Of a DNA stretch of 64,000 nucleotides, positions 47,477-51,772 are shown piece by piece. The translations under genes were made by a program, and so were the position numbers. This stretch comes from Escherichia phage A5-4. The stretch lies in the sequence record OP744025; one strand, given 5' to 3'. Every line of letters starts with the position of its first letter. The stretch's first letter is position 1. Below the pieces are notes generated by a model. It was not told the origin of the DNA and did not search any database. It saw nothing but the letters and a program-made list of their open reading frames with translations.

Positions 47477-48585
47477 TAAATACCTACCCGTTTTAAAGTT
47501 GAGGCTAATGTTGTCTTATCATTTTCTGTACGCTTCATATAAACACACTGGAAAATGACAGAAGCCCACTGACCCGCCGAAAACTTACGATGATTCCCTA
47601 AGTGGTCTGTATATTCAACACCCTCAGGAAACCACTTCTTATACTGATCAATAATAGCTAACCACATACTCTTCTCGTCTGCACAAGGGGAGATGACCTG
47701 GAAAGCCGATGTTTCACCAAAGCGAAGACCCTCGAAGGTTTGATATGGTTTAACGTTATCCGCTGCATCACCAAATAGCATTTGGTAACCGAAGAATTTC
47801 TTACCCCAACCTTTTACCTTACCAGACTCCATCCAGATCTCACCCATAGAATCATCGATCAACCAAAGTTCAGGATGTTTCCATGTACGCTCTGTTGAGT
47901 CACGCATTGTGTTAAACAACAAAGAAGGAACCTGGACCTGATCCTTATCGAATGATGCCACAATATGACTAAACTTTCCAGTCTTCCGATAATTTAAATA
48001 TCCTTTATATCCAAGGATCGATAAATAATCATCTGCCTCAATACCATCCACAATGATCGCACCATACTTCTGCTGAACATATCGACGAGTCTCCCCAAGC
48101 AACAAAGGACGTAAAGTATCTTCACGGTTACCCTTATAGACCTCGGGGGTCGGGAGTGCAAGACGGAAGTTACCACTCCCACCTAAAACACCAAGCCCGT
48201 TTGCTGATCCTACGTGCTCAAGAATAGCATTGATCTTAATCTTCAATAAGTGAAGACAGTTCTCAACTGGTTCTGGAGTTTGCTTTTCAATGATCTCGAA
48301 ATCATCACGAGTCCACGGAGTAAATTCTTTTCCGCGAGCAACCGCTTTTGCTTCCATATTAATGTTTTGGTCTTTTAACCACCCACCAACAACATTCTTT
48401 TGGCGACCCCAGAACTCTGTTCGATTTTTAAACTCTTTCTCTCGGCCTGTTTCTTTGTGCCGAGCAATGATCGTTCGCTTCTCTGCACCTGCCGCAGCCA
48501 CGTATGCTGTCTGGTCAAGATCCAGAGCTACTACAACATTATCTTCTACAATGCCGGACCAATCTTTTACTTTAGGATATCCCAT
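47476..48585 (-). CDS. rnh: RNase H / flap endonuclease (T4 rnh-like 5'-3' exonuclease)
   Basis: VVALDLDQTAYVAAA and GIEADDYLSIL parallel T4 RNase H ICLIDFSQIALSTAL and YEADDHIAVL. Confidence 0.55.
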   Translation of the reverse strand: MGYPKVKDWSGIVEDNVVVALDLDQTAYVAAAGAEKRTIIARHKETGREKEFKNRTEFWGRQKNVVGGWLKDQNINMEAKAVARGKEFTPWTRDDFEIIEKQTPEPVENCLHLLKIKINAILEHVGSANGLGVLGGSGNFRLALPTPEVYKGNREDTLRPLLLGETRRYVQQKYGAIIVDGIEADDYLSILGYKGYLNYRKTGKFSHIVASFDKDQVQVPSLLFNTMRDSTERTWKHPELWLIDDSMGEIWMESGKVKGWGKKFFGYQMLFGDAADNVKPYQTFEGLRFGETSAFQVISPCADEKSMWLAIIDQYKKWFPEGVEYTDHLGNHRKFSAGQWASVIFQCVYMKRTENDKTTLASTLKRVGI

Positions 48586-49079
48586 TATAACTCCTTACCG
48601 TGATTTTCATGAAAGCCGTATTTAATCTCTGCTGCTTTTCTTGCAGCAATTGCATCCTCTTTATCTTCGAAGCGTCCTAGGTATACTCTAACACGATTTA
48701 CAGTTATAGATGCAAGCCATTTTTGCTCTTTTTCCCTCCACATGACCCCTGTGTATCCACTTTTATTACGAGAACTCTTCTTGTTGTTTCTCATATTGTC
48801 TATCTGAGATACCATACGAAGATTACTCATCCTGTTATCCCAAGGTACGTGGTTTATATGGTCAATTACCTTATTGTCCGGTATTTCTCCATTGTTAATT
48901 TCCCACGCTACACGATGACCGAGATGAAGAACGCCATCTAACCATATGTGTATATAACCCCTTTTCTTATTTCTTTTTCCTGCAACGTCACCAGGATAAA
49001 TACCATTATGTCTTCTAACTTTCCAGTACATAACCCCAGTTTCTTGATCGTAAATAAGATAATCATGCCAATTTACCAT
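48585..49079 (-). CDS. HNH homing endonuclease with AP2 DNA-binding domain
   Basis: HNH motif HLGHRVAWE...IDHINHVPWDNRMSNLR; AP2-like GYTGVMWREKEQKWLASITVNRVRVYLGRFEDKEDA. Confidence 0.7.
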   Translation of the reverse strand: MVNWHDYLIYDQETGVMYWKVRRHNGIYPGDVAGKRNKKRGYIHIWLDGVLHLGHRVAWEINNGEIPDNKVIDHINHVPWDNRMSNLRMVSQIDNMRNNKKSSRNKSGYTGVMWREKEQKWLASITVNRVRVYLGRFEDKEDAIAARKAAEIKYGFHENHGKEL

Positions 49080-49582
49080 CAGAAAGCCTCGCCGTAATCT
49101 TCGTCTTCTTTAACTTCTTTTACTGGTCGCTTGAATTTGAAATCTTTACCCATATATTCATACAAATAATCAATATTCAAAGACCATTCTTGCTTACTTC
49201 TTTGTCGCCACAATGCCGCAGCTTGCATAATGTATTCTTCAGCAGCCTTCTTGTCAACACCGTTAACTTTCATAAAGTGTCGTATTGCACGAGCCATGTT
49301 ACCAGTTGCTTGAGCACGACCGATGTGTTTTACTTCATGGCAAGGAGGGCATAAAGCAATCACGCCTCGTAACACAACTTCACTATTAACAAAGTCCCAC
49401 ACTTCGTGGGCCTCTACCGGATGCTTACGACCGTTCCCGCCTTTTCCACCACAAACTTCACAAGTGTAGTTGGCCTCTTGATAACATTTACGACGAACTT
49501 TGTCCCATCCCGCTTGGGTAAGGTAAGATCGAAGGTTGTTGTCCCAAGCTGTGCTTGGGATTAATTCGATAGTTAATTTCAT
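49079..49582 (-). CDS. zinc-binding HNH-like nuclease (tentative)
   Basis: Cys/His pattern CEVCGGKG...HPVEAHEVW...CPPCHEVKH. Confidence 0.35.
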   Translation of the reverse strand: MKLTIELIPSTAWDNNLRSYLTQAGWDKVRRKCYQEANYTCEVCGGKGGNGRKHPVEAHEVWDFVNSEVVLRGVIALCPPCHEVKHIGRAQATGNMARAIRHFMKVNGVDKKAAEEYIMQAAALWRQRSKQEWSLNIDYLYEYMGKDFKFKRPVKEVKEDEDYGEAF

Positions 49583-50134
49583 TTAGTATGCCTCACATTT
49601 ACCAATCATATTCATAGCTTCAGAAACATCGATAATCATATCGGTTGCTTCGTCCCAAGCTTTCCCCAAGAGATTCTCACCATACCAGAAACTTTCATCA
49701 TCTACCATAGGGTGATTCTCATCCATACCGATCCCCCATATACGATCTCTCGGAGAAGCCTCTACAAACTTTAAACCCTTTTTACGGTAACCTACCGCAA
49801 GTTCACGGAGATTACCATTATCACACATACGACTATACACTAAACGGGTTACAATGTTAAATTTATTTTCATCCCAAACTGCCTGATCAAAATCCTTAAC
49901 TTTACGACCTAGCCTTTTAGCACCTTGTGGAGTTACAGATTTAAGGATTCTTTCCGCTGAAGCTTTGTCACCGAAAAGCATAGCCTTTTCATACATCATG
50001 TAATGCTCACCTGTGTGGAAATAAACCCCTTTCATCTTCTGGTCGAAGTTTGAAAACGGAGAGATCTCCTGGTAATGATTACTAAAAACATCACGAAAAG
50101 AATAAAAGAACACATGTTTATCAGTGACTCGCAT
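49583..50134 (-). CDS. NADAR-domain (YbiA-like) protein
   Basis: Motifs FFYSF, FSNF, GEHYMMYEKAMLF, LGRKVKDFD, WGIGMDENHP typical of NADAR/DUF1768; start set at internal Met. Confidence 0.6.
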   Translation of the reverse strand: MRVTDKHVFFYSFRDVFSNHYQEISPFSNFDQKMKGVYFHTGEHYMMYEKAMLFGDKASAERILKSVTPQGAKRLGRKVKDFDQAVWDENKFNIVTRLVYSRMCDNGNLRELAVGYRKKGLKFVEASPRDRIWGIGMDENHPMVDDESFWYGENLLGKAWDEATDMIIDVSEAMNMIGKCEAY

Positions 50135-50270
50135 AAAAACTCCTATAGATCTAATGCAGATATTGAAATCAAGAATAGCACTACCGAAAGTAATCCGTCC
50201 GGCGTACTGAAAAATCCAATCCAGCACGCCCTTGTGAACAGGTAGAATGCCAGTATTAAAACGATAACCC

Positions 50271-50507
50271 CTAAGAATGTTTCGATTTTTCTAACTCCCG
50301 AGCCATAATCTTCGTAATGTCAGCAAACGCAACATAAGCATGTTTGTAACAACCTACATCAACATTGAGAGACTTGATCTCCTCTTCTAATGAATTTATT
50401 ACATGAAGTGTTTGACGAATAAGATCAACATCCTTAGTCGTTACATTAGGAGAATCCGTCATCAACTTAAGCCTTTCTTTAATCGTTTCGATATCTTGAT
50501 TATACAT
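50271..50507 (-). CDS. hypothetical protein
   Basis: Internal Met of track ORF 50271..50663 with RBS ggag. Confidence 0.45.
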   Translation of the reverse strand: MYNQDIETIKERLKLMTDSPNVTTKDVDLIRQTLHVINSLEEEIKSLNVDVGCYKHAYVAFADITKIMARELEKSKHS

Positions 50508-50832: not shown

Positions 50833-51081
50833 TTAATTTCCTCCTCGATCTGTGTAGTGCTGTATAATCTCATTTAAACATTTACCTGTCAACGAAAATT
50901 TCTTAGCTACATAACACTCAGCAATGTGTTCTTTCAAATCCTTAGAGTCTGTGTAGCCCATCTCTACAATGAAGTTACGAATCTTAGCCTTATCTTTATC
51001 ATTTAAAGAATTAAAATAATCACTTTTAGAATTAATTATCCTCATTTTCAAGTTTCCTGATCTGATAGTAAAGAGAGTCAA
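50833..51081 (-). CDS. hypothetical protein
   Basis: ORF track. Confidence 0.5.
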   Translation of the reverse strand: MTLFTIRSGNLKMRIINSKSDYFNSLNDKDKAKIRNFIVEMGYTDSKDLKEHIAECYVAKKFSLTGKCLNEIIQHYTDRGGN

Positions 51082-51304
51082 TGATCTCTTCGTTGGCCTT
51101 AATGTACATATCCCGTAAGAAAGGTTTCAACCCATCACGCAAAATATTTCCATCACAAGCATCGTTCAGGTATGGATGACCTAGAGCCTCCCAAGCAGGC
51201 TGATTAGTATACGTACCCCAACCCTCTTTCATCATCTGGTTAAGATGCTCGATTTGTTTTATCTTAAGCTGTAAAGCTTCAATAGTAAGCTGTTTAATGT
51301 TCAT
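51032..51304 (-). CDS. hypothetical protein
   Basis: ORF track; overlap suggests the true start may be internal. Confidence 0.45.
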   Translation of the reverse strand: MNIKQLTIEALQLKIKQIEHLNQMMKEGWGTYTNQPAWEALGHPYLNDACDGNILRDGLKPFLRDMYIKANEEIIDSLYYQIRKLENEDN

Positions 51305-51768
51305 CAGTAAAGGTCCTCCGAGTAAAGTTCTTTCTCACTTCCACCACGTTCGATACGTACCTGTCCGGCATAAGTTGCAATAACCATTGCTTCTTCACGA
51401 GTCCAGTAATTTGAATATTGATCAATAAAGCCTTGGTCGTCACCACAGACTTGTTGTGAAACTAATTGGGGACCCACCACATCAAGCACTTCAGCCATAT
51501 CTTTAGAGTAATGACGAGCACCAGGAATAACCAGAGTTCCACCACCCTTCAATTTAAACCGATTAGCAGCACATACAATAGTACGTTGAACTTTTTGATC
51601 ATTATTCCAATGACATGTTTGCCAACAGATCTCAGGAATATCGTCCATCATATCTTCGAAAGAGTAATCAGCATTTCCGTATGACTGTAGTTTTTCAAAC
51701 AAACTCTCTGGAGTTTCACGAGACAAAGCTTTATCCAATAATTCCAGGCGTTCTTTAAAAGTTTTCAA
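51304..51768 (-). CDS. hypothetical protein
   Basis: ORF track. Confidence 0.55.
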
Positions 51769-51772
51769 TTGA

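Follow-up and report, generated by a model that had tools for sequence, protein, structure and literature searches.

Introduction

Does the NADAR-domain gene of Escherichia phage A5-4 protect the phage against a host defence that acts by ADP-ribosylation, or does it belong to a metabolic pathway? NADARs are the antitoxins of DarTG1 systems and hydrolyse guanine-N2-ADP-ribose (Schuller et al. 2023, PMC11543638). This in vitro activity is common to all NADAR subtypes, YbiA and T4 gp30.3 among them, but they differ in the protection of cells, and cells in which YbiA or T4 gp30.3 was expressed alone were not rescued from DarT1 (Cihlova et al. 2024, PMC11125620). T4 gp30.3 (AdfN) has been established as a genuine anti-DarTG1 factor (Johannesman et al. 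2025, Nat Commun 16:1598, PMC11825919). The same work showed that two unrelated phage NADARs, AdfN^Bas32 and AdfN^Bas60, each neutralise DarT1 on their own and allow RB69, T5 and Bas25 to plate again on hosts with DarTG1, not on those with DarTG2; AdfN function has been demonstrated for AdfN^T4, AdfN^Bas32 and AdfN^Bas60 only (PMC11825919).

We analysed a stretch of 64,000 nucleotides of phage A5-4 (sequence record OP744025), which is referred to here as the window. A first-pass annotation of this DNA had linked NADARs with the reversal of guanine ADP-ribosylation by DarT-type toxins, a statement that is borne out by the published work on DarT1 (PMC11543638, PMC11825919), and had proposed a NADAR-domain ORF in the window as a candidate counter-defence factor.

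Identification of the NADAR gene

The gene and its putative ribosome-binding site are as follows.

49583-50134, minus strand: NADAR-family CDS, predicted guanine-ADP-ribose glycohydrolase (AdfN-like), 183 aa plus the TAA stop
50140-50143, minus strand: Shine-Dalgarno GGAG, 5 nt 5' of the NADAR ATG at 50134, read from the sequence

The ATG start codon occupies 50134-50132 and the TAA stop 49585-49583. An upstream GTG, giving a protein of 214 aa, is the start codon in the mechanical ORF list and in the GenBank entries for phages A73 and W70. The frame is open for 31 codons 5' of the ATG up to this GTG (window 50135-50227), and with the GTG start annotated in A73 and W70 there is no intergenic gap. 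Alignment of homologues revealed a conserved N-terminus, MRVTDKHVFF, which matches the ATG start and for this reason indicates that the ATG is the correct one. The upstream ORF ends near 50271, and the ATG start leaves about 136 nt untranslated between it and NADAR. Searches of this stretch gave no promoter, terminator or Rfam match, and in a consensus scan for a dedicated NADAR promoter or terminator the sites were no commoner than in shuffled sequence. The Rfam search gave no family except distant tRNAs. Several tRNA genes (Met, Tyr, Gly, Gln and Pro according to ARAGORN) are clustered at window 61271-63124 on the plus strand, where Rfam added one weak tRNA match, at 61271-61349, that ARAGORN did not call.

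The three sequence patterns by which the ORF had been recognised as a NADAR, VFFYSF, TGEHYMMYEKAMLFGD and IWGIGMDENHP, are all present in the translation. The protein matched Pfam PF08719 (NADAR) with 128.4 bits (E 4.1e-37; profile positions 11-158 of 163; gathering cut-off 35.1 bits) and phrog_1017 with an E value of 1.4e-46. It matched the NADAR of Phytophthora nicotianae (PnNADAR, PDB 8BAU) with an E value of 3.6e-13 and YbiA (PDB 2B3W) with 1.2e-5, and it has the alpha-helical NADAR/YbiA fold; the alignment used for the structure left out the Bas60 sequence. The first-pass annotation had called the protein YbiA-like. The assignment to the NADAR family holds, while the likeness to YbiA was imprecise, as the protein is closer to the stand-alone 8BAU in both sequence and fold. 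The GenBank labels "hypothetical protein", "swarming motility protein" and "riboflavin N-glycosidase" leave these genes misannotated or unannotated.

Active site

Previous structural work (Schuller et al. 2023, PMC11543638) has shown that ADP-ribose is held in 8BAU by E43, K50, K75, R79, W89, R93, E125, D130 and W133, and that the E125 position of PnNADAR is catalytically essential; DarG1 has Asp there, and T4-type NADARs have His. The window protein has E43, K50, K73, R77, W87, E125, D130 and W133, with K91 replacing R93. In our alignments the first seven of these residues were invariant in 35-37 homologues, and W133 was at least 90% conserved. Their positions in the window are given below.

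49985-50008, minus strand: E43 (50006-50008) to K50 (49985-49987), motif GEHYMMYEK, invariant in three alignments
49874-49918, minus strand: K73 (49916-49918), R77 (49904-49906) and W87 (49874-49876), invariant in two alignments
49736-49762, minus strand: E125 (49760-49762), D130 (49745-49747) and W133 (49736-49738), motif VEASPRDRIWGIG, from alignments

E43 and K50 of the window protein correspond to E43 and K50 of PnNADAR and to E36 and K43 of AdfN^T4, and mutation of E36 and K43 in the T4 protein weakens counter-defence (PMC11825919). According to the HMMER alignment to 8BAU, K73, R77 and W87 are the equivalents of K75, R79 and W89 of PnNADAR, which bind the pyrophosphate. The predicted set of active-site residues is intact in the window protein, and enzymatic activity as such, transferred from the homologues, is highly probable.

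Phage relatives and selection

The DNA of the window region is 93.5-98% identical to that of five E. coli myoviruses of the Vequintavirinae (A73, W70, A7_1, UPEC06 and vB_EcoM-LTH01), which confirms the phage origin of the NADAR gene. A73 and W70 encode the identical protein (100%), and the versions of UPEC06 and LTH01 match it at 96-97% identity. After these, identity falls to only about 56% for the best phage homologues, which come from Certrevirus-type phages of Cronobacter, Pectobacterium and Enterobacter, and then to about 50% for those of PVP-SE1-like phages of Salmonella and Cronobacter. A search of a large protein database gave a picture of the homologues that agrees with this phage comparison. 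In a neighbour-joining tree of 125 sequences drawn from hits to the window protein, which carries no support values, the window protein first joined its top database homologues (about 50-57% identical) and then a set that includes Salmonella phage SSE121.

A comparison of the NADAR genes of the window phage and UPEC06 gave 27 synonymous and 7 non-synonymous differences, with a dN/dS of 0.05; the neighbouring exonuclease gene, with 0.06 in the same comparison, is similar. This strong purifying selection indicates that NADAR is a maintained, functional enzyme gene.

The orthologue in A7_1 (OP795442, 8461-9104, corresponding to window 49583-50134) lacks 1 nt of a CCC run in the middle of the gene, so that it is annotated as two CDS (A71_66 and A71_67), and it also has an L75P exchange at a nearly invariant position. 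It is either a pseudogene or the product of a sequencing error. If it is a pseudogene, the NADAR would be dispensable on K-12. Such dispensability fits a conditional counter-defence role, and equally a gene of little importance.

The ADP-ribose-binding residues, all of which are present in the window protein, would also suit a protein that does not act as an enzyme at all, that is, an inhibitor of an NAD+-consuming defence that works by binding ADP-ribose. The phage NADAR U56 reportedly inhibits Retron-Eco1 in this manner. A passage of PMC11825919 cites Carabias et al. 2024 (Mol Cell 84:2185) for "another phage NADAR" that acts without need of catalysis. However, the catalytic residues E43, K50 and E125 of the window protein are fully conserved under purifying selection, as in an enzyme, and a protein that only binds ADP-ribose could do without some of them. 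We therefore consider a U56-like function quite improbable for the window protein.

Genomic neighbourhood

The NADAR gene is part of a long run of genes on one strand that serve replication and nucleotide metabolism. Their order is DNA ligase, several small ORFs, NADAR, HNH, HNH-AP2, 5'-3' exonuclease, endonuclease VII, thymidylate synthase and ribonucleotide reductases. Pectobacterium phage phiTE (Certrevirus) has the same order, from the ligase through NADAR, HNH gene or genes and exonuclease to endonuclease VII, and PVP-SE1 shares this module order according to notes in the phiTE record. In rV5, the type Vequintavirus, no NADAR was found in positions 40,000-137,947 (best tblastn E 0.4), while the ligase, the phrog_5200 HNH (46% identical) and the exonuclease (55% identical) are kept. 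As rV5 keeps the module without NADAR, NADAR is an accessory gene that was inserted into, or lost from, a conserved module.

Two endonuclease genes separate NADAR from the exonuclease gene.

49079-49582, minus strand: HNH endonuclease (phrog_5200, E 1e-70), whose ATG abuts the NADAR stop (TAA-ATG)
48585-49079, minus strand: free-standing (homing-type) endonuclease with HNH_3 and AP2 (Pfam HNH_3 E 6e-16)

Homologues of the phrog_5200 HNH were found in the same position in UPEC06, A7_1, A73, phiTE and rV5. A functional link between NADAR and this abutting HNH was considered and is unsupported, since rV5 has the phrog_5200 HNH at this position but no NADAR. Its conservation even in rV5 suggests that it may be a core gene and not a homing element. 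The AP2 match of the second endonuclease is weak (21.8 bits, below the cut-off of 33.3). This protein is 75% identical in phiTE and variably present among the relatives; no close homologue (>32%) was found in the A73, UPEC06 and A7_1 loci.

The junction between NADAR and the exonuclease is a hotspot of free-standing HNH endonucleases (window 48585-49582; L005 14808-15832; L008 39939-40442; L009 5036-6556), with two of them in the window (phrog_5200 and HNH_3 plus AP2), one in UPEC06 and three in phiTE. The A73 junction has an unrelated 170-aa ORF and a phrog_5200 copy that is 66% identical.

On the other side of the gene, about 0.7 kb 5' of NADAR and past two small ORFs, there is a block of about 0.9 kb (window 50855-51770) that is about 78% identical in nucleotide sequence to many E. 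coli and Shigella phages of about 166-171 kb (HX01, F2, ESh27 and others), which we take to be T-even-like. The block looks like the result of horizontal exchange between unrelated myovirus lineages. Its three minus-strand ORFs (50833-51081, 51032-51304 and 51304-51768) are annotated as "anti-restriction nuclease" (phrog_4452, phrog_1844 and phrog_839). No Pfam domain was found in any of the three, and the name looks to have been propagated between records. Elsewhere in the window, at 12846-16377 on the minus strand, RCC1-like beta-propeller repeats (matches to WD40_RLD and RCC1_2) occur in a row of three paralogous ORFs, which are 380-414 aa long.

A Pfam search of 30 neighbouring or large ORFs of the window found no DarT, ADP-ribosyltransferase (ART), macrodomain, Nudix, NadV, PRPP synthetase or sirtuin. 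Similarly, tblastn searches of the window returned nothing when the Bas60 NadV, PRPP synthetase, macrodomain, phosphoribosyltransferase and sirtuin or the rV5 Tk.4 and Sir2 served as queries. The NADAR of the window phage is an orphan, with no adjacent DarT toxin gene.

These searches also bear on the suggestion, made in the first-pass annotation, that the protein participates in NAD salvage, in which the phage would reconstitute NAD+ from ADP-ribose or NAD breakdown products. In its favour, the family name carries an old association with "NAD and ADP-ribose", and some related phages have NAD genes elsewhere, such as the NadV and PRPP synthetase genes of Bas60. However, the module around the gene serves DNA replication and recombination, and neither Pfam nor tblastn detected in the window any of the partners that were looked for. 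A context for NAD salvage was therefore rejected, and this function is scarcely credible here. We know of no NARP pathway that uses a NADAR enzyme. In the NARP3 paper, the sole mention of a NADAR is that of AdfN as an anti-DarT factor.

The genes of Bas60 include those for a macrodomain protein, a phosphoribosyltransferase and a HAD protein, with PRPP synthetase and NadV encoded in another part of its genome (L004 9888-12103; L012 43141-45839), a set of ADP-ribose and NAD genes that is absent from the window. The NADAR-less rV5 (NC_011041, L010 31672-32130) carries a Tk.4-like gene, for which no homologue was found in the window. T4 Tk.4 has recently been named AdfM, a macrodomain anti-DarTG2 factor (bioRxiv 10.1101/2025.11.20.689424). 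Different Vequintavirinae may have different anti-DarTG tools.

Comparison with characterised NADARs

The window protein is 39-40% identical to AdfN^Bas60, 32% to PnNADAR, 29% to E. coli YbiA and 21% to T4 gp30.3. Its nearest experimentally tested relative is AdfN^Bas60, the product of bas60_0111, which is the single NADAR gene of Escherichia phage PaulScherrer/Bas60 (Justusliebigvirus; MZ501100). Both are stand-alone NADARs of 183 aa with the N-terminus MR[VI]TDK[HY]VFF, both are encoded by large E. coli myoviruses in the rV5/phi92 supergroup, and they share E43, K50, K73, R77, W87, E125 and D130 as well as an acidic pI (6.2 for the window protein and 5.9 for AdfN^Bas60). Both are outside the YbiA, DarG1 and T4 branches. 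The smallest clade of the neighbour-joining tree (no support values) that contains the two excludes PnNADAR and YbiA, in agreement with the published clustering of AdfN^Bas60 with "non-YbiA, non-DarG1 bacterial NADARs" (PMC11825919).

However, about 60% of the residues differ between the two proteins. AdfN^Bas60 has IYGIK where the window protein has IWGIG, and it has a 7-residue insertion after helix 3. Its gene follows that of an FtsH-like protease, about 50 kb from the exonuclease gene, a locus different from that of the window NADAR. Because of these different loci, the two are homologues but not demonstrable orthologues. AdfN^Bas60 has been characterised by experiment, whereas the window protein is known from its sequence.

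PnNADAR is a stand-alone guanine-ADPr hydrolase of the "NADAR" family, eukaryotic and with no role in phage biology (Schuller et al. 2023). It has an insertion of about 16 residues before the last helix which is not found in the window protein. The latter has a C-terminal helical extension (residues ~165-183) which is not found in PnNADAR; the length of this extension is common to most of its ~26 closest homologues (~50-57% identical).

E. coli YbiA (PDB 2B3W) is an N-glycosidase of riboflavin intermediates which also removes guanine-ADPr in vitro. A housekeeping-type function of this kind, acting on reactive intermediates of riboflavin biosynthesis, is what the databases suggest for the window protein. 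TIGR02464 matched it with 128.1 bits (cut-off 73.7), the UPEC06 orthologue is annotated as "swarming motility protein ybiA", and the Bas60 NADAR as "YbiA-like N-glycosidase". But TIGR02464 is also passed by the anti-DarT1 protein AdfN^Bas60 (109.4 bits) and the guanine-ADPr hydrolase PnNADAR (127.1 bits). The model does not discriminate between them, and for this reason the riboflavin-YbiA label was rejected as uninformative. YbiA differs from the window protein in being basic (pI 9.4) and in having no loop between the WG motif and the last helix. The ybiA gene is chromosomal and lies in a LexA-controlled operon (PMC11125620), adjoining dinG and ybiB. The window gene does not conform to the YbiA type, characterised by fusion or linkage with riboflavin genes, by the dinG/ybiB SOS operon and by closest similarity to E. 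coli YbiA: no riboflavin gene was found near NADAR by Pfam in the scanned ORFs, its context is one of replication and recombination, and its predicted structure is closer to 8BAU. Moreover, it is not evident why a lytic phage would need to control riboflavin damage, and Bas60-type phage NADARs have been placed outside the YbiA housekeeping branch (PMC11825919). We regard a riboflavin-related function as highly improbable.

AdfN^T4 (gp30.3), of T-even phages, is a phage-encoded orphan NADAR against DarTG1, as is proposed for the window protein. Its gene is a few kb from the phage DNA ligase gene, as is the window NADAR. However, gp30.3 had no cross-match to the Pfam, NCBIfam and PADLOC models that the window protein matches. 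It has only the minimal core, with His at the position of Glu125, and its full activity needs the T-even context. The window protein keeps Glu125 and is not of this T4 type.

DarG1, the BC4488-type antitoxin of DarTG1 (represented by the G. lovleyi NADAR, PDB 8BAT), is of the same superfamily, and its chemistry, the reversal of guanine ADP-ribosylation by DarT1, is proposed for the window protein too. The window protein does not conform to the DarG1/BC4488 type, which has an N-terminal extension, a catalytic Asp in place of Glu125 and a darT1 operon. Nor is it among the NADARs of bacterial defence systems: NF053876 (DS-32 "NADAR family anti-phage protein") gave 29.3 bits against a cut-off of 240, and a match to the PADLOC candidate system PDC-M42C (E 3e-25) reflects only the shared domain, the gene being in a phage and not in a bacterial defence operon.

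The window protein and AdfN^Bas60 have a mildly acidic net charge, whereas YbiA and gp30.3 are basic. As this pattern is suggestive only, charge was set aside as a means of predicting efficacy in vivo.

Proposed function

Taken on homology, the window gene is probably an orphan, enzymatically active NADAR glycohydrolase that is used as an AdfN-like counter-defence. The description of the gene as a candidate counter-defence factor was apt, being strongly supported by homology: a predicted NADAR with an intact site, encoded by a phage, for which there are published AdfN counterparts. By its sequence, it is a divergent member of the published AdfN class and not a new kind of system.

The activity, substrate, expression timing and in vivo role that we infer would combine as follows. 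Infection of a DarTG1-type host would unleash DarT1, which would place ADP-ribose on N2 of guanines in the phage DNA and block its replication. The phage NADAR may be expressed together with the ligase, 5'-3' exonuclease and endonuclease VII of the same-strand block. It would bind the pyrophosphate of ADP-ribose through K50, K73, R77, W87 and W133, and the distal ribose through E43, E125 and D130. Hydrolysis of the N-glycosidic bond between ribose and guanine would then yield unmodified DNA, on which replication could proceed.

Several observations weigh against this AdfN-like function. The window protein shares only about 40% of its residues with the validated AdfN^Bas60, and the genes of the two occupy different genomic loci. 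As YbiA and T4 gp30.3 exemplify, activity in vitro is no guarantee of protection in vivo. The A7_1 orthologue has its frameshift and L75P. Promoter-like sites are at chance level.

The enzyme might also be a nucleic-acid de-ADP-ribosylase of broader or different specificity, with guanine-ADPr on RNA, cytidine-ADPr on DNA or RNA, or the adducts of as yet undescribed ART toxins or defences as its main target. NADARs have been found to reverse guanosine-ADPr on RNA, and the stand-alone NADARs of S. coelicolor and a sponge, as well as YbiA-type ones, also remove cytidine-ADPr, which DarG1-type and T4-type NADARs do not. The window protein is closest to the stand-alone PnNADAR branch, and phage NADARs may counter other ADP-ribosylating defences, as suggested by Johannesman et al. 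(PMC11825919). On the other hand, E. coli is without a known defence that ADP-ribosylates cytidine or RNA guanine, an E. coli stand-alone NADAR did not remove C-ADPr according to the literature, and DarTG1 is the only demonstrated in vivo target of a related phage NADAR. We consider this specificity rather unlikely as the main one; it overlaps with the AdfN-like function and does not exclude it. A broad-spectrum base de-ADP-ribosylase, acting on G and C in DNA and RNA and protecting against toxins other than DarT1, including those of undescribed enterobacterial defences, is in our opinion unlikely. Such a broad-spectrum NADAR would possibly act in concert with the adjacent repair and recombination enzymes.

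Significance

Counter-defence to DarTG1 by phage NADARs was already published in 2025 for related NADARs. As the principle was established in 2023-2025, the window NADAR leaves the current understanding unchanged. For annotation, "NADAR-family ADP-ribosylglycohydrolase, AdfN-like" would be a more accurate label than the present ones. If the AdfN-like function is true, the small Vequintavirinae clade of A73, W70, UPEC06, LTH01 and the window phage should resist DarTG1, and the Certrevirus and Seunavirus phages with a NADAR at the same locus should likewise be DarTG1-resistant. This would be useful for annotation and for predicting the host range of therapeutic phage candidates.
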